32,000 nucleotides of DNA. Origin: Nostoc punctiforme PCC 73102. GTDB lineage: Bacteria; Cyanobacteriota; Cyanobacteriia; Cyanobacteriales; Nostocaceae. The position numbers and the translations under genes were made by a program. The notes beneath the pieces were generated by a model. It ran no database searches. It saw nothing but the letters and a program-made list of their open reading frames with translations, and was not told the origin of the DNA. Within the stretch, counting starts at the first letter, position 1. Each line of letters opens with the position of its first letter. The stretch lies in assembly GCF_000020025.1 (NCBI RefSeq), contig NC_010632.1, forward strand, positions 1-32,000, in the 5' to 3' direction. Below, piece after piece: positions 13,385 through 22,887 of the stretch.

Positions 13385-14926
13385 TTAATTGTCGTGAAAG
13401 CCGAGATTTTCTAGTAATAGAGTCACCCCCTTTTCGTTTAACTCTTGCCCTGTTAATTCGTGCCACTTTTGTTTGATTTCCTGAAAATGTGGTCTTCTCC
13501 CTAATTCTGTTGCCCATTTTCTAATTTCTTCATACCAGTCAACCTGCTGCTGTGAGGATTGCTGATTATTTTTAGAACTATTAACAGTGTCATTATTCGG
13601 CTTGGAATCTTGTTTTTGTTCCAGACCTTTGATATCAAATTCCGGGATTAGGGCAACAAAGGGATTACCACGAGTTGGAATTACTAGGGCATATCGAACT
13701 CCGGCTTTATCCAACATTTCGCAAGCCTGTCGCAAGATTTCAAGAATTTCTTTTTTGACATTCAGAAAATCCTGGGGATGGTCAAGGATATAACTCGATG
13801 TCTGCCCTACAGCAATAAAGCAAACGTTTTTCAGAGATGGGCGACTAAATCCGGTTTCTCCAGAGAGCGGGGACTGGCCCATAAACACCCCATGTCCTTT
13901 AAGTCCGGCGGTGAATTTGATGATATAGTTCCAAAAACCTTGCAAGTCTTTGGCAGTATCAGCATCAACCATTCCTGGAAGTCCCTTGCCACCACCATAA
14001 ACACTATCTACTTCATCCTGAGCAAGAAATAATTCGGGAACACCGTGACATTCACCACCAACAATTGATACTCTTGCTTTCTGCTTGTCAATTTGGTCTG
14101 TGGCAAAGGTAATCCAATCTCTTAACGCTTTCATACCGTCAAACTTACGGCTGAACTTGCACAACCATCTGGTGACATCATCTTTTGGATCGCTGCCGAT
14201 GACAATTGCTGGCGTTTGAGATTTTGCACCAATTTTGTTGATAATCACCCCAGCCAGCGTAGACTTCCCAGATTGTGTACCACCAGATAGGTAAAAATGG
14301 TGATTACTGCGAAGAGTCATATTTTGATTAGATGCAGCATCACACAGTTCATCAATCCAAGCACTATCAATTCTGATGTATTCAGGATAATTAGCTGCGA
14401 TCGCTTGCAGAACTTTCATTGCACCTGGATTGATGATGCTCTGTACAAACTCTTCATCAATGTCAGCAATATCAGGATTGGGAATACCAGTCCGCGAAGG
14501 TTGGTGTTGTGCTGGTGGTTCGGGCAGAGTTACCAAGCCTTGCAACTGGTATTCAGCTATCCACCGGGGGCGCTCAGTAATGGGCAGACGATTCACATAA
14601 TCAGCAACTCTGCGTTTGGCATCAATCGCTGTAGTTACATAATTGTATGCTGCTTGACCTTGCAAATGTTGTTTGAGTGCTTTCAAATCAGCTTCTAGCA
14701 AAGATTTGTAAACTTTTTCCTTACTTTCGCTGATTTGGGCAGATACCCCAAACAAACCAGCACTAATCGTCCCAGCGCCGAGTAAGATTCCGGTTGTTAT
14801 TCTGTCAGTATTTAAGAAAAAAGGAGCAGACAGACATAACACTGCACTCGCTCCTAAACTGCATAAGATAGTCCGTTCTGCATGAATTACACTACTGGCA
14901 GTTAGTCGTTCTAATTCAAAACCCAT
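13385..14926 (-). CDS. Membrane-anchored P-loop NTPase (FtsK/TraB/type-IV-coupling-protein-like)
   Basis: Two N-terminal hydrophobic segments (ILCSLGASAVLCLSAPFFL; GILLGAGTISAGLFGVSA). Walker A is FYLSGGTQSGKSTLAG and Walker B is PELFLAQDEVD, followed by GHGVFMGQSP. There is a basic helical C-terminal tail. The family assignment comes from motif order only. Confidence 0.6.
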   Translation of the reverse strand: MGFELERLTASSVIHAERTILCSLGASAVLCLSAPFFLNTDRITTGILLGAGTISAGLFGVSAQISESKEKVYKSLLEADLKALKQHLQGQAAYNYVTTAIDAKRRVADYVNRLPITERPRWIAEYQLQGLVTLPEPPAQHQPSRTGIPNPDIADIDEEFVQSIINPGAMKVLQAIAANYPEYIRIDSAWIDELCDAASNQNMTLRSNHHFYLSGGTQSGKSTLAGVIINKIGAKSQTPAIVIGSDPKDDVTRWLCKFSRKFDGMKALRDWITFATDQIDKQKARVSIVGGECHGVPELFLAQDEVDSVYGGGKGLPGMVDADTAKDLQGFWNYIIKFTAGLKGHGVFMGQSPLSGETGFSRPSLKNVCFIAVGQTSSYILDHPQDFLNVKKEILEILRQACEMLDKAGVRYALVIPTRGNPFVALIPEFDIKGLEQKQDSKPNNDTVNSSKNNQQSSQQQVDWYEEIRKWATELGRRPHFQEIKQKWHELTGQELNEKGVTLLLENLGFHDN

Positions 14927-14929
14927 AAA

Positions 14930-15217
14930 TTATCGCACCCCCAACGCAACACCAGCACAAACTAAAGTCAGAAAGGCAAACAGAAATATTACCCCAGGCA
15001 TCAAGCCGATGGTAAAAGTTTTGCGGTTAAATCCAAAACCTTTAACGACTAAACCGCCAAAGTTGAATAACCCCAGAAATATGCAGCAGATAGAGATTAT
15101 GCCGATAAACCAAAGAATGTACTTACTAACGGGGCTGGCAACCGATAAATAACCCATAAACATAGAAAAGCCAACCCCGCACACTGCATATCCTATATGA
15201 AAGAGCTTGATTTGCAT
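14930..15217 (-). CDS. Small integral membrane protein (95 aa, ~3 TM)
   Basis: Almost entirely hydrophobic, with three predicted helices. It ends 3 nt before the ATPase start. Confidence 0.7.
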   Translation of the reverse strand: MQIKLFHIGYAVCGVGFSMFMGYLSVASPVSKYILWFIGIISICCIFLGLFNFGGLVVKGFGFNRKTFTIGLMPGVIFLFAFLTLVCAGVALGVR

Positions 15218-15220
15218 AAT

Positions 15221-15255
15221 CAGAATCCAGAAGTCAGGAGCCAGGAGTCAGAATG
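15221..15255. repeat. Tandem heptamer array (5 x CAGRAKN)
   Basis: CAGAATC CAGAAGT CAGGAGC CAGGAGT CAGAATG. It is the inverted complement of the array at 15603-15636 and supplies the last codons and stop of the four-helix-bundle gene. Confidence 0.9.
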
Positions 15256-15599
15256 GAATTAGAATAACTTGTAAGCAGTTTACTAACTTCTTCAAGTAGC
15301 AGCATTAATTCTGACATATCACCATATTTCAGATCACTTGACAGAATTAAATAATAGCGACACTCTTCTAAAGAGCCTTGAGCAATATTCATAAATTTCG
15401 CTTTATCTGCTAATCCTTTTTTCTTAAAGCCTTCCGCAATATTTGCTGGAATAGAAATTGCTGCTCTTCTAAACTGTGATGTAAGCCCATATATTTCTGA
15501 TTTAGGAAACTCATTAGTTATTCGATACACTGATAAAACAAACCGATGCGCTTTTTGCCAAACTATCAAATCTTGAAATGTTCTTGCTGGTTGTCTCAT
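15234..15599 (-). CDS. Four-helix-bundle protein (23S rRNA intervening-sequence protein family)
   Basis: FQDLIVWQKAHRFVLSVYRITNEFPKSEIYGLTSQFRRAAISIPANIAEGFKKKG..AKFMNIAQGSLEECRYYL is the canonical signature of this family (TIGR02436 / PF05635). Confidence 0.9.
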   Translation of the reverse strand: MRQPARTFQDLIVWQKAHRFVLSVYRITNEFPKSEIYGLTSQFRRAAISIPANIAEGFKKKGLADKAKFMNIAQGSLEECRYYLILSSDLKYGDMSELMLLLEEVSKLLTSYSNSILTPGS

Positions 15600-15602
15600 T
15601 TG

Positions 15603-15636
15603 TTCTGACTCCTGACTTCTGACTCCTGACTCCTGA
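15603..15636. repeat. Tandem heptamer array (4.9 x TYCTGAC)
   Basis: TTCTGAC TCCTGAC TTCTGAC TCCTGAC TCCTGA. It is the reverse complement of the 15221-15255 array and abuts the stop codon (15638-15640) of the upstream gene. Confidence 0.9.
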
Positions 15637-15637
15637 T

Positions 15638-16078
15638 CTAGAACCTGAAACTATCTCCCACTTCATCAAATGCTTTCTCGTATCCTCCGAGTTGACGCTG
15701 CTGTTCAATAGAACCAAAGGCATGACGGATCACTGCCTCCCCATGTAATCCCCTGGTTCGCTGCAAATCTTCCTCAACCTTCATGGCTTCTTGGGAATAT
15801 GCCAATTGGTTTTTATACATCTCTGCCAAAGATTGCAACTGTTTGAGCTTGTGCCGGGAGAACTTTGTATGTAGCCACTTCTGTGCTTTTAAATTGCCAG
15901 CCACTTCTGCTTCATCCAGAACCTGCTGTGCTGTAGTGTAAGCTGGCAATGTGTAGCGATCGCGGATTGATGAAGGTAAATTACCCTCAATTTGTGTTGC
16001 ATCACCCACCCTTAAATCTGTTGACACTACTCCATCACCTTTACCGCCAAATAAACCAGGAAGCCATTTTCCTAACAT
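15638..16078 (-). CDS. Hypothetical protein (146 aa)
   Basis: Intact ORF in the operon series. No motif recognised. Confidence 0.6.
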   Translation of the reverse strand: MLGKWLPGLFGGKGDGVVSTDLRVGDATQIEGNLPSSIRDRYTLPAYTTAQQVLDEAEVAGNLKAQKWLHTKFSRHKLKQLQSLAEMYKNQLAYSQEAMKVEEDLQRTRGLHGEAVIRHAFGSIEQQRQLGGYEKAFDEVGDSFRF

Positions 16079-19821: not shown

Positions 19822-19960
19822 TTTTAATCCTTGGCTGAATAGCCGATTATTGATTAGTAATTTGAGTTTTCACCGATACCATATTGCAATTTTAGAAAAC
19901 TGACTGGAGTACAGATTTCTTGCCAATCACAAGCTCCCATTGGGGCATTCCAGTCATTTA

Positions 19961-20135
19961 CAATTCGCAATTCGCAGTTCGCAATTCGCAATTAAATACA
20001 AGAAATCACTTGTTATTTAATTGTTAATTAATGGGTCTTAATCCACCACTGATTCAAAAGAAAGTGGTCTTAAATCAGTGGTGGGTTTAAGCTCTCACTG
20101 ATTCAATCAATTGCGAATTGCGAATTGCGAATTGC
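19961..20135. repeat. Element bounded by inverted heptamer arrays (CAATTCG)n / (AATTGCG)n
   Basis: Left array is 19961-19993 (4.7 copies) and right array is 20109-20135 (3.9 copies, reverse complement). The 115-nt interior contains the hairpin CCACCACTGATT ... AATCAGTGGTGG. Confidence 0.85.
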
Positions 20136-20141
20136 TTTGAT

Positions 20142-22340: not shown

Positions 22341-22524
22341 CAGAATTTAGGAGTCAGGAGTCAGGATTCAGAATATAGGAAAGGTATTGTGACCGAAAAA
22401 ACGTCTGAATAATCGGCGTTTTTGCATCCCCACCAAATTGAAGTTTTAGTGGTGCAACAATTCAGTCATAGGTCTGAATCCCAGACTAAGAGCAAGTCTA
22501 AGAGCGCCTTGATTCTGACTCCTG
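22341..22524. repeat. ORF-less element bounded by CAGGAGT-type heptamer arrays
   Basis: Left array is CAGAATT TAGGAGT CAGGAGT CAGGATT CAGAATA (22341-22375), nearly the same 35 bp as 15221-15255. The short inverted right arm is TTCTGACTCCTG (22513-22524). The 137-nt interior has no ORF. The element sits between two operon genes. Confidence 0.8.
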
Positions 22525-22542
22525 TTAGCGGTAGCGGGGCGT

Positions 22543-22887
22543 TTAGCCCATTCTGACTTCTGAACTCTTCATAACAATTCCAGGAATTGTTTTTAACTCG
22601 TACTTCAGCATTTCAATTTGATATAGTCGCTTTTTAATCTCTGCTTCTAGAAGTGTTTTCAATTCCTGCGGTTTGAGCAATTTAATCTCGTTCTCTAAGT
22701 GATTTTCCTCTTCAATGGAATTCATGTCAGGCATGACTAAATACCGCCAGTTTTCATCGTATTCATAAGCTAAAAGACTATCGCTTGGGTAATACTTCAT
22801 GCCGATAATCATTCCTTGTTCTATACGTTGTCCGAAAGTGAAGCGGGGGTATTTCCAACCGTGTGGAATGGTGATTGTTGGTTGCAT
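22543..22887 (-). CDS. Hypothetical protein (114 aa)
   Basis: TAATG overlap with the upstream gene. C-terminal coiled coil. Confidence 0.6.
   Translation of the reverse strand: MQPTITIPHGWKYPRFTFGQRIEQGMIIGMKYYPSDSLLAYEYDENWRYLVMPDMNSIEEENHLENEIKLLKPQELKTLLEAEIKKRLYQIEMLKYELKTIPGIVMKSSEVRMG

Follow-up and report, generated by a model that had tools for sequence, protein, structure and literature searches.

A four-helix-bundle gene between complementary heptamer arrays in a Nostoc plasmid operon is probably one copy of a widespread cassette family akin to 23S rRNA intervening sequences

How a gene of the family known from 23S rRNA intervening sequences (IVSs) came to lie between two tightly packed protein-coding genes is the question raised by a plasmid operon of Nostoc punctiforme PCC 73102, contained in the first 32,000 nucleotides of contig NC_010632.1, hereafter the window. 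The first-pass annotation had described the gene as a self-contained cassette, flanked by inverted heptamer arrays, inserted exactly between two operon genes and resembling an IVS or a MITE; the analysis reported here bears out this description and leads to the conclusion that the unit at window positions 15219..15637 probably belongs to a widespread family of small and selfish gene cassettes, kin to the ORF-bearing rRNA IVSs.

The cassette (15219..15637, about 418–420 bp) lies on the minus strand, as do both neighbouring genes, and is composed of a 5' heptamer arm (15603..15637), an ORF for a 121-aa four-helix-bundle protein (15234..15599; S23p/23S_rRNA_IVP/TIGR02436) and a 3' heptamer arm (15219..15253). 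According to the ORF positions the cassette, as claimed, takes up all of the space between the two operon genes: it directly adjoins the stop codon of the upstream gene (15638..16078; 146 aa, without family match), and the downstream one (14930..15217; 95 aa, hydrophobic) has its start codon 13 nt past the ORF stop. On the sense strand, the 5' arm, ATCAGGAGTCAGGAGTCAGAAGTCAGGAGTCAGAA, begins directly behind the TAG of the upstream gene, and its five heptamers, which contain SD-like GGAG motifs, stop 4 nt short of the ATG of the ORF, the GGAG upstream of this ATG being part of the arm. The 3' arm, TTCTGACTCCTGGCTCCTGACTTCTGGATTCTGAT, holds the final six codons of the ORF (ILTPGS) together with its TGA stop, and ends 1–2 nt ahead of the ATG of the downstream gene; the arrays thus provide, as had been proposed, both the SD region and the last codons of the gene.

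On the plus strand the left array (15221–15255) reads CAGAATC CAGAAGT CAGGAGC CAGGAGT CAGAATG, all five units matching CAGRAKN, and the right array (15603–15636) reads TTCTGAC TCCTGAC TTCTGAC TCCTGAC TCCTGA. The latter is called by TRF (15605–15636; period 7, 4.6 copies, 92% matches), and the left array, the more degenerate of the two, gives no TRF call at score ≥30. The arms, of 35 nt each, are 83% complementary and separated by 349 nt, in agreement with two mutually complementary arrays bounding the gene. Furthermore, a search of the window for CAGGAGTCAGGAGT, allowing up to three mismatches, gives 14 occurrences where 1.67 would be expected (100 shuffles, maximum 5), and the window holds four strong period-7 segments against 0.02 expected. 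In the predicted fold of the sense-strand RNA both arrays pair in one long terminal stem, in the MFE as well as in the centroid structure, with an MFE of -124.8 kcal/mol (z = -4.5) that none of 100 shuffles equals.

The encoded protein is a clear member of the 23S rRNA IVS four-helix-bundle family, as had been recognised, matching Pfam 23S_rRNA_IVP (PF05635) with 126.3 bits (E 7e-37, cut-off 33.8) and TIGR02436 with 118.1 bits (cut-off 24). Its AF2 monomer model (pLDDT 90) has helices at residues 8–28, 39–58, 63–89, and 96–117, and Foldseek with this model retrieved 2GSC (Xcc0516; TM 0.82, rmsd 1.5), which phmmer also found at E 2e-18, 2RLD (BT_0352; TM 0.77), Avd 4DWL (TM 0.74), and the DGR RNP structures 8UBE/8UB7. 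The proposed kinship with Avd is real but distant, with a shared fold and scores under the cut-offs of the Avd profiles (DivGenRetAVD 29.4 bits, cut-off 80; bAvd 25 bits, cut-off 40). Avd is a nucleic-acid-binding pentamer, and the structures of the 2GSC and 2RLD homologues were solved with five chains each. In particular, the 2GSC protein is a homopentamer (PMC4990558). The conserved family motif GxxRxxxSxxxNxxE (PMC3936711) is represented in part, by R45, S49, N53, and E56, invariant in both alignments, with Q42 at the G position in this subfamily, and dN/dS values of 0.08–0.18 for the cassette ORF show that it is under purifying selection. The PADLOC defence-system libraries gave no match for the protein. 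In 2.9 million viral contigs the family is nearly absent, with four distant matches only, and phage carriage was rejected on this basis. PF05635 comprises 21,572 clusters at 50% identity, and family members are annotated merely as 'four helix bundle protein'.

The insertion between the two operon genes is documented by empty sites. Three orthologous Nostoc plasmid operons (L009, L014, L010) have a 3-bp spacer between the 146-aa and 95-aa genes, reading CAT-AAC-CTA, where the window junction reads CATAA-TCAGAAT...CCTGAT-CTAG; the cassette takes the place of 1–2 nt of the original 3-nt spacer, 'GT' being lost at this first site. Further orthologous operons of Nostoc plasmids carry a cassette at the same junction, and at the next junction of the operon, the second site, one plasmid has a different four-helix-bundle cassette (43% identity, GGGGAAA arrays). 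In this comparison gene and arrays are missing together; neither of the two observations that would have spoken against the first-pass description, orthologous operons always holding the gene without flanking arrays or other genomic copies without the inverted-array architecture, occurred. The operon is present, for example, in Nostoc sp. C052 (pC052_D) and ATCC 53789 (pNsp_a). Between the window and an occupied locus (L011) the flanks are 89–95% identical and the ORF 78%, and the arrays are more alike than the ORFs. A T4SS identity for the operon was considered and is not shown, its genes being without family matches.

Plasmids of Aulosira, Trichormus, and Scytonema carry, at unrelated sites, cassette DNA 82–84% identical to that of the window, and the BLAST matches there span window positions 15222–15637 only, without any shared flank; at these other sites the same cassette again extends from array to array, and its inverted-array architecture is kept. 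At one of these, the third site (Trichormus/Scytonema), the empty counterpart plasmids have flanks 97.5–98% identical to the occupied ones, and a fourth, cas10|cmr3, is occupied in PCC 7003 and empty in PCC 7002. Moreover, L011 and L013 share a tract of near-identity (positions 2134–2558, 2 differences in 425 bp) whose two ends lie no more than 3 and 9 nt from the cassette borders, the flanks diverging by about 8%. At least four independent junctions have been hit, each directly after a stop codon and with the cassette in sense orientation, which is its orientation in all seven plasmid loci where the neighbouring genes are co-directional, as well as in the rRNA copy described below; the cassette typically occupies the entire gap from the stop of one gene to the start of the next. 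The target-site bases involve a possible GTAA duplication at site 3, 0–1 nt at the L012 insertion, and about 30 nt of replaced target in PCC 7003, and no consistent target-site duplication was found among the sites compared. The annotation of the 38-kb syntenic region lists neither a transposase nor an integrase, and the sole ORF of the cassette is the four-helix bundle. The surroundings of the insertions have no function in common (plasmid backbone genes, a gene beside TrbI/VirB10, cas10|cmr3, cas6|cas4, and rRNA), and each Nostoc strain has several large plasmids that are related to one another. These comparisons show a cassette that is present or absent at orthologous sites and that evidently moves as DNA with array-to-array borders, recently in Nostocales; the suspected mobility is upheld by the unrelated sites, by the empty counterparts with nearly identical flanks, and by the discordant divergence of cassette and flanks. 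In non-cyanobacterial hosts, cassette and flanks have diverged to the same extent and inheritance is vertical; since this is combined with strong conservation of the protein, a gene useful to the host fits as well as a purely selfish one.

The cassette type was found in a dozen or more bacterial phyla. Stems scoring at least 30 occur in 62 of 86 loci (median 35 columns), in hosts of 34–70% GC. The upstream and downstream arms of one locus score 39.3 against each other, compared with 28.4 for arms of different loci, and 62 of 76 loci have the higher score for their own arms (Wilcoxon p 8e-10). A period-7 signal was detected in 27 upstream and 32 downstream windows versus 0 of 74 controls, and of 79 loci, 42 have two or more CAGRAKN units upstream and 65 have two or more copies of the complement downstream, the wrong orientation giving 2–4 of 79. 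All 53 stems considered have a 5' arm that is rich in purines on the sense strand; in 35 this arm has an SD-like motif, and in 31 the ORF stop falls inside the 3' arm. The heptamer sequence is conserved across hosts of 34–70% GC, different protein subfamilies have different heptamer units, and variant units co-vary between both arms (L041, L060, L087, L097; L010, L018, L106, L108). Over the same range the GC3 of the ORF tracks host GC (r = 0.88), so that the cassettes are real residents of their hosts. The 5' arm is undetectable in about 28% of relatives, and in the Pseudanabaena subfamily of L104 the heptamer arrays are direct, not inverted. Among the non-Watson-Crick positions of 62 stems, G:U-compatible pairs number 105 on the sense and 101 on the antisense strand; this test of G:U versus A:C asymmetry gives no signal specific to sense RNA, and because the counts are equal on both strands the complementarity could persist at the DNA level and not by selection on an mRNA stem. 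Neighbouring genes are co-directional upstream in 64 of 78 and downstream in 52 of 76 cases, values obtained with a crude ORF caller and not clearly above the bacterial background.

In line with the proposed MITE-like nature, derivatives devoid of the ORF exist, and two of them, without assigned strand, are present in the window itself. The element at 22341..22560 is of the same repeat type, with CAGGAGT/complement arms around a core of about 130 nt and an extra insert of about 26 nt in the right arm; its type occurs at 47 places in 28 Nostocales plasmids, the element was also compared with L101, and its RNA fold has z -4.1. The element at 19955..20139 has a different heptamer, the arms (CAATTCG)4.7 and (CGAATTG)3.9 enclosing about 110 nt of core, and a predicted fold of -79.5 kcal/mol (z -11.9); no four-helix-bundle cassette with the CAATTCG repeat was found among the fetched loci. 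One ORF-less copy is inserted inside a four-helix-bundle gene. Decay products comprise the L100 remnant and the L043 mini-cassette, and L043 also has cassettes in tandem.

The link to rRNA is provided by L107 (Azospirillum lipoferum AZO_p2), the rRNA example from the plasmid collection, which is a genuine 23S rRNA helix-45 IVS (Rfam LSU 479.8 bits) with a homologous ORF in sense orientation between heptamer arrays of the CAGAGGA type, its arms being 36 nt long, 86% complementary, and 397 nt apart. The IVS of Coxiella burnetii has heptamers (GACAGAT x3 and GACAGAATG, ending ...CAGAATG) before the S23p ORF and a 28-bp stem with mapped RNase III cuts (PMC4990558). The ORF-bearing 23S rRNA IVSs (Coxiella burnetii, Leptospira, L107) equal the cassette in the homologous S23p/PF05635 ORF, in its sense orientation, in complementary arms of 28–36 nt made of tandem heptamers running into the start codon, and in a total size of about 420–470 nt. 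They differ in their site, which is helix 9, 25 or 45 of the rRNA rather than an intergenic spacer of an mRNA, and in the state of the ORF, which in the cassette is intact, with an SD and under purifying selection, whereas the S23p of Coxiella is apparently not made and its ORF is decaying (PMC4990558). Within the window no Rfam family reaches threshold and the cassette flanks are protein-coding genes; an all-against-all flank BLAST of 80 genome loci revealed no cross-phylum conservation of the rRNA kind. Taken together, the shared geometry supports the IVS-like nature claimed for the cassette, as an rRNA-IVS-type element residing in an mRNA. RNase III excision has been shown for rRNA copies only, and by analogy the transcript of the cassette may be processed by the same enzyme.

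In the explanation that we favour, the unit would be a promoter-less 121-aa S23p/PF05635 gene with an Avd-like fold, placed between two complementary arrays of about five heptamers, of which, on the sense strand, the purine-rich upstream one (CAGRAKN) runs into the ATG and the downstream complement begins in the last codons. The ORF-bearing rRNA IVSs would be units of the same type landed in 23S helix 45, and the window copy would have landed in the 3-bp spacer of tightly packed Nostoc plasmid operon genes. Transcription would occur by read-through from the host operon, and the 5' arm would supply the ribosome-binding site; the 3' arm would yield the stop codon, the 7-nt period setting TGA in successive frames, and termination beside the following start codon would limit polarity. 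In the transcript the arms may pair in a stem of about 35 bp that would bury SD and ATG and represent the type of substrate that RNase III cuts in rRNA copies. Constant association is seen only for the arrays and the small protein.

The same observations can be read at the level of DNA, with the arrays as terminal inverted repeats (multiple binding sites or an ssDNA hairpin) for a transposase or recombinase acting in trans, the four-helix-bundle gene as a passenger or regulator and the RNA stem as incidental. This reading is possible, if on the whole doubtful: the missing sense-strand G:U bias (105 versus 101), the exact borders, the two repeat types in one window, and the ORF-less copies dispersed in many Nostocales plasmids, one of them within a four-helix-bundle gene, speak for it, but it would require a single trans enzyme in a dozen or more phyla, no transposase is present within the cassette or annotated in the syntenic neighbourhood, and no consistent target-site duplication is seen; moreover, a pure DNA signal needs no such orientation rule as the purine-rich sense 5' arm of 53/53 stems and an ORF start and stop built into the arms. 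A further option, rather unlikely, is a self-recognising element whose four-helix-bundle protein would attach, in RNA or DNA, to the roughly five heptamers of its own arrays and move, maintain or auto-regulate the cassette. The median arm of 35 nt, equal to 5 x 7, would suit a protein with homologues solved as five chains (2GSC, 2RLD), one of them a homopentamer (PMC4990558), and with matches to Avd 4DWL and the DGR RNP 8UBE/8UB7; in addition, protein and arrays are the only constant companions, the heptamer is conserved over 34–70% host GC, the protein subfamilies have their own units, dN/dS is 0.08–0.18, and a mobility role of the IVS ORF was proposed by Ralph and McClelland (1993), as cited in PMC4990558, which likewise cites the idea of IVSs as transposition remnants or mobile elements. 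Nevertheless, strand-transfer chemistry is not known for a helical bundle of 121 aa, simple co-inheritance also predicts the protein-array correlation, and the Coxiella protein is apparently not made, its ORF decaying (PMC4990558).

Dedicated mobility might be dispensable altogether, if homologous recombination or gene conversion acted between related plasmids and shared arrays and the insertions were rare illegitimate events. The coexistence of several large related plasmids per Nostoc strain, the vertical inheritance outside cyanobacteria, and the arrays of the window and L011, more alike than the ORFs as expected of recombination handles, agree with such a scenario, which is nonetheless improbable in view of the 82–84% identical copies between unrelated genes without shared flank, of an L011/L013 identity tract ending 3 and 9 nt from the cassette borders, and of at least four independent junctions, all after a stop codon and in sense orientation, with rRNA helix 45 reached too. 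Hardly credible is an ordinary resident accessory gene of this operon, or of cas operons, amid ordinary cyanobacterial heptamer repeats; the association of 23S_rRNA_IVP genes with cas loci has been reported (PMC3936711; PMC10910872) and the intergenic DNA of Nostoc commonly contains tandem heptamers (PMC4692102), but this reading is contradicted by the presence/absence data, gene and arrays being missing together from orthologous operons, and the host contexts are functionally unrelated, with the same arrays flanking the gene in non-cyanobacterial phyla.

The favoured selfish cassette family can be compared with several known systems. It recalls REPIN/RAYT (PMC3116915) in the small gene between inverted repeats and in the many dispersed ORF-less hairpins of the same genomes; however, RAYT is an HUH/Y1 transposase homologue, whereas the cassette protein is a 121-aa helical bundle without known catalytic fold, and the arms are tandem heptamers instead of REP palindromes. 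Short length, inverted-repeat ends, presence polymorphism, multiple copies, and ORF-less versions are shared with MITEs, from which the cassette copy is distinguished by its conserved ORF and by lacking a consistent target-site duplication as well as any parent IS or transposase that could be identified. Integron cassettes are similar in having a promoter-less single ORF, a hairpin-forming recombination-type signal, an external promoter, and tandem arrangement (L043), but they have one attC 3' of the ORF, whereas here half-sites lie on both sides; no integrase or attI is annotated in the syntenic plasmid neighbourhood, seven neighbouring ORFs of the window have no such Pfam match, and the insertions are scattered among ordinary operons. 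Free-standing homing endonuclease genes show the same precise sense intergenic insertion in tight operons and a homing-like discordant divergence; the cassette, in contrast, has no endonuclease domain and its family is nearly absent from viral contigs. Regarding DGRs, the fold is that of Avd (4DWL TM 0.74; DGR RNP 8UBE), but the profile scores remain below cut-off, neighbouring ORFs have no RT domain, and no template/variable repeats are nearby. Finally, tandem heptamer repeats of Nostoc and Xanthomonas, GGGGAYT and GGGAATC, usually of about four units, have been read as G-quadruplex motifs, with 70–75 convergent inverted heptamer pairs per Xanthomonas genome (PMC4692102). In Xanthomonas, the start codon of XCC0516, whose four-helix-bundle product has been crystallised, is overlapped by one GGGAATC array, but most of these repeats do not adjoin a four-helix-bundle gene; their relationship with the cassette family is offered as a lead.

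No description of the cassette outside rRNA was found in the literature searched. The origin and mobility of rRNA IVSs have been a standing question since 1990–93, and the unit described here represents an IVS-type unit caught outside rRNA, whose sites are seen both empty and occupied, whose borders are exact and whose transfer is recent, which makes the question of IVS mobility testable in culturable Nostoc strains. The published 'association' of 23S_rRNA_IVP with cas4, cas6, and cas10 can be reinterpreted as insertions, and a new reading is offered, as a lead, for the inverted arrays of heptamers so far unexplained in Nostoc and Xanthomonas. Speculatively, and with small probability, the gene and its two arrays could constitute an autonomous mobile element of a new kind, without transposase, recombinase, reverse transcriptase or homing endonuclease, in which a pentameric protein reads about five heptamers per arm and directs the unit into stop/start junctions of transcribed DNA; rRNA IVSs, four-helix-bundle genes of cas operons, and thousands of heptamer hairpins of Nostoc and Xanthomonas would then be copies or relics of it. 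If the small protein is a mobility or recognition factor, the family would be a new class of mobile elements, and, if the inferred low polarity holds, it may offer a compact cassette for putting genes into operons.

The four-helix-bundle cassette lies on the window's minus strand at 15219-15637 and is formed by an ORF of 121 aa (15234-15599) placed, on the same strand, after a 146-aa gene (15638-16078), whose stop adjoins the cassette, and before a 95-aa gene (14930-15217), whose start lies just past it. The ORF is bordered by five CAGRAKN units (15221-15255, read from the sequence) and 4.6-4.9 TYCTGAC units (15603-15636, read from the sequence and by repeat finding), exactly the arrays and coordinates described in the first-pass annotation. 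The corresponding arms (15219-15253 and 15603-15637) are 35 nt each, 83% complementary and 349 nt apart, and in the predicted fold of the sense RNA they form a single terminal stem (z -4.5), in agreement, as a fold, with the long stem proposed there to enclose the ORF. The double heptamer occurs 14 times in the window with 1.67 expected, and strong period-7 segments four times with 0.02 expected, so the heptamer arrays are far beyond chance. On the sense strand the 5' arm begins right after the upstream TAG and bears GGAG ahead of the ATG of the ORF; the 3' arm codes for ILTPGS and a TGA stop and ends 1-2 nt short of the next ATG. Further downstream, a 513-aa gene (13385-14926) encodes a P-loop protein whose only matches, to mads_8 (E 4e-6) and TrbB (E 2e-3), are weak; all genes of the conserved plasmid operon are uncharacterised beyond this. 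All the short-read Logan contigs with the exact protein (L001-L008) stop about 40 nt past the gene, within the 3' arm, which is compatible with further copies of the arm elsewhere in those genomes.

The operon was compared with large Nostoc plasmids matching the window at 84-91% identity. The junction between the 146-aa and 95-aa genes is empty in pC052_A of Nostoc sp. C052 (L009) and in pNsp_b (L014) and pNsp_c (L010) of ATCC 53789, where both the four-helix-bundle gene and the arrays are absent and the spacer is 3 bp (CAT-AAC-CTA on the plus strand), and is occupied in C052 pC052_D (L011), ATCC 53789 pNsp_a (L013), N6 pNPM1 (L012) and two more assemblies (L110, L111); these empty orthologous junctions substantiate the insertion between two operon genes that had been proposed. 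In pNsp_c, a different four-helix-bundle cassette (L010 1880-2345, identity 43%), with its gene flanked by inverted GGGGAAA-type arrays, occupies the adjacent junction between the 95-aa and 513-aa genes, which in the window likewise has a 3-bp spacer. In pNPM1, the four-helix-bundle gene of the orthologous cassette is split (L012 2300-2500) by an element of about 190 bp that has no ORF and carries inverted CAGGAGT/CAGAATT arrays at its ends.

DNA matches of 82-84% confined to window 15222-15637 are also found amid unrelated genes on plasmids of Aulosira laxa, Trichormus variabilis and Scytonema. Seven listed plasmids (H59-H65: Nostoc PCC 7120 pCC7120beta, Tolypothrix PCC 7601 and PCC 7712, Microchaete, N. 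linckia, Aulosira laxa and N. carneum) match the Trichormus/Scytonema site in two pieces, with flanks 97.5-98% identical. In pCC7120beta (L099), the copy whose junction was read, the site is empty, with ...AAAAAGTAA directly followed by TTAACAAATAATTATG; the occupied form reads ...GTAA, then the insert from TAAATCAGAATTCAG to CTGAGTTCTTCTTTGTAA, then TTAAC, and C052 pC052_E retains a decayed cassette remnant there. In Picosynechococcus PCC 7003 (L018) a fourth site, the cas10-cmr3 junction, holds a cassette with GGAGATAA-type arms; the PCC 7002 junction is empty, and the flanks are 89% identical between the two. Copies between unrelated genes, empty counterparts and array-to-array borders, all in line with the mobile cassette of the first-pass annotation, show that the unit is self-contained and is gained and lost in transcribed DNA, in sense orientation and with exact borders.

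The divergence of cassette and flanks is discordant in Nostoc plasmid pairs. Between the window and L011 or L013 the flanking genes are 86-95% identical and the ORF only 78%, and in another Nostoc pair (L020 and L021) the values are 93% and 85%; L011 and L013 differ by about 8% in their flanks and at 2 of 425 bases over positions 2134-2558, a tract coinciding with the cassette to within 3 and 9 nt. At orthologous sites outside cyanobacteria, cassettes have diverged as much as their flanks, being old and stable residents there. No target-site duplication is consistent across the junctions compared, and no mobilising enzyme is recognisable within the element or annotated nearby. In each of the five junctions read, the upstream gene's stop codon is followed at once by the 5' arm; this position may be due to target choice or may be the survivor of selection in tight operons.

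The ORF belongs to PF05635 (23S_rRNA_IVP, E 7e-37) and to TIGR02436 ("four helix bundle protein"). Its AlphaFold model (four helices, pLDDT 90) is most similar to Xcc0516 (2GSC, TM 0.82), BT_0352 (2RLD), the DGR accessory protein Avd (4DWL, TM 0.74) and a DGR ribonucleoprotein (8UBE); the relation to Avd suggested earlier thus holds for the fold, the matches to DGR Avd profiles being weak and under the cut-off. The structures 2GSC and 2RLD each contain five chains as solved, and PMC4990558 describes the protein of 2GSC as a homopentamer. The dN/dS between cassettes (0.08-0.18) indicates a functional protein, for which no defence-system match was found. Close relatives number more than 8000, and the family comprises 21,572 clusters at 50% clustering (E <= 1e-3). 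One predicted protein of 2474 aa (P0158) contains 17 separate stretches matching the query and may represent a tandem fusion or a wrongly called run of cassettes.

Scanning a single genome for each species gave at least 593 loci, the best 80 of which (62-82% identity to the window protein) carry record titles from Nostocales, Nitrospirota, Verrucomicrobiota, Acidobacteriota, Thermodesulfobacteriota/Desulfobacterota, Clostridia, Lentisphaerota, Planctomycetota, Bacteroidota/Ignavibacteria, Balneolaceae, Elusimicrobia, Kiritimatiellia, Calditrichota, Fibrobacterota and others. The GC3 of the ORF follows the GC of the flanks (r = 0.88, range 34-70% GC), so the sampled cassettes are real residents of their hosts. 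Two loci labelled Bifidobacteriaceae and Limisphaerales (L036 and L039) have a common flank (82% identity over 714 bp), probably a mis-binned metagenomic contig. The cassette usually occupies the whole gap to the neighbouring genes; in most loci CAGRAKN-type arrays lead into the ATG and their complement begins in the C-terminal codons, encoding tails such as ILNSDS and ILTPGS. Two or more CAGRAKN units occur upstream in 42/79 loci, and two or more of the complement downstream in 65/79, compared with 2-4/79 in the wrong orientation; CAGAATG is the commonest last unit (22 times). A period-7 signal of at least 0.75 is present in 27 upstream and 32 downstream windows vs 0/74 controls, and the stem score reaches at least 30 in 62/86 loci, with a median of 35 columns, equal to five heptamers.

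Variant units change together in both arms, as in L041 (TAGTAGA/TCTACTA), L060 (GGAGACA/TGTCTCC), L087 (AGAAGCC/GGCTTCT) and L097 (GTAGCAA/TTGCTAC): an upstream arm scores 39.3 with its own downstream arm and 28.4 with those of other loci, the own score being higher in 62/76 (p 8e-10). Distant subfamilies use GGGAAAA (Geminocystis), AAGGTTC (Riemerella) and CAGGTGA (Anabaena sp. 90); one exception is Pseudanabaena (L104), whose arrays are direct, not inverted, with (AAAAGCT)14 upstream and (AAAAGCC)n downstream. In Xanthomonas campestris XCC0516/XCC0517 a GGGAATC array overlaps the start codon of XCC0516 (PMC4692102, supplementary file 2), the crystallised family member (2GSC), and each Xanthomonas genome contains 70-75 unexplained convergent array pairs (PMC4692102).

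The cassette would be expressed by read-through from the host operon, with the 5' arm as ribosome-binding site and the 3' arm as translation terminator. Of 53 stems, all have a 5' arm rich in purines on the sense strand, 35 have an SD-like motif 4-16 nt ahead of the ATG and 31 have the ORF stop within the 3' arm; owing to the 7-nt period TGA shifts through the reading frames, and 3' arms have stops in all three frames in 20/53 and in two frames in 17/53. A stop beside the following start codon would keep translational coupling, and pairing of the arms in the transcript would give a stem of about 35 bp concealing the SD and ATG, a candidate RNase III-type substrate. Selection specific to the sense RNA finds no support in the one discriminating test, on 62 stems, with 105 (sense) vs 101 (antisense) G:U-compatible pairs, and complementarity may instead be maintained in the DNA, by way of terminal repeats, hairpins or template-switch correction from arm to arm. 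Putative recognition by the pentameric protein of its own five-heptamer arms fits their co-travel, the unit conserved across GC contents and the arm length.

ORF-less elements are also present in the window. The one at 19955-20139 has (CAATTCG)4.7 and (CGAATTG)3.9 arms and a core of about 110 nt containing a CCACCACTGATT...AATCAGTGGTGG hairpin (RNA fold -79.5 kcal/mol, z -11.9). The CAGGAGT-type element at 22341-22560 has 47 matches in 28 Nostocales plasmids and, compared with the L101 copy, about 26 extra nt (TTAGCGGTAGCGGGGCGTTTAGCCCA) within its right arm, apparently a nested insertion of very small size, reminiscent of the cyanobacterial "small dispersed repeats". Locus L043 has at 1400-1500 a mini-cassette with an internal deletion (5' arm, ATG, a few codons joined to C-terminal codons, 3' arm), in tandem directly upstream of a full cassette; this seems to show how a cassette turns into an ORF-less hairpin.

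Cassettes are found within cas operons at cas6-cas4 twice and at cas10-cmr3 once (L104, Pseudanabaena galeata pPg_01; L105, Anabaena sp. 90 pANA02; L018, Picosynechococcus PCC 7003); with the empty PCC 7002 orthologue, they suggest that the published "association" of the family with cas genes reflects insertions. The rRNA intervening sequences (IVSs), the heptamers of Coxiella, the presence of 23S_rRNA_IVP genes in cas loci (PMC3936711, PMC10910872) and inverted heptamer arrays in Xanthomonas and Nostoc (PMC4692102) were each described before, separately; a search of the freely accessible literature found no work joining the four, and none on four-helix-bundle cassettes in mRNA operons with empty sites.

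One plasmid match, Azospirillum lipoferum AZO_p2 (L107), is by Rfam a bacterial LSU rRNA gene (479.8 bits; positions 874-1483 of the model) and carries in the helix-45 region a homologous ORF in sense orientation (42% identity, tblastn) between CAGAGGA-type arms of 36 nt, 86% complementary and 397 nt apart, the same geometry as in the window. The Coxiella burnetii IVS, also in helix 45, is 428 nt long with an S23p ORF and a 28-bp terminal stem within which RNase III cleavage was mapped, and has three tandem GACAGAT and one GACAGAA right before the ATG, in a copy number that varies by strain (PMC4990558). The Coxiella array thereby ends in CAGAATG, as the sampled loci do most often. A CPR study reports 23S_rRNA_IVP ORFs from several insertion sites, both 16S and 23S. 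The Azospirillum geometry, the Coxiella IVS and the CPR insertions indicate that the window element is the same kind of unit with an mRNA instead of an rRNA as host, and the rRNA copy with its homologous ORF and equivalent arms upholds the IVS-like cassette in an mRNA proposed at first reading. The element would be alike in its working to the rRNA IVSs and lacks one defining feature of an IVS, the location in rRNA; it displays the mobility that has so far only been hypothesised for IVSs.
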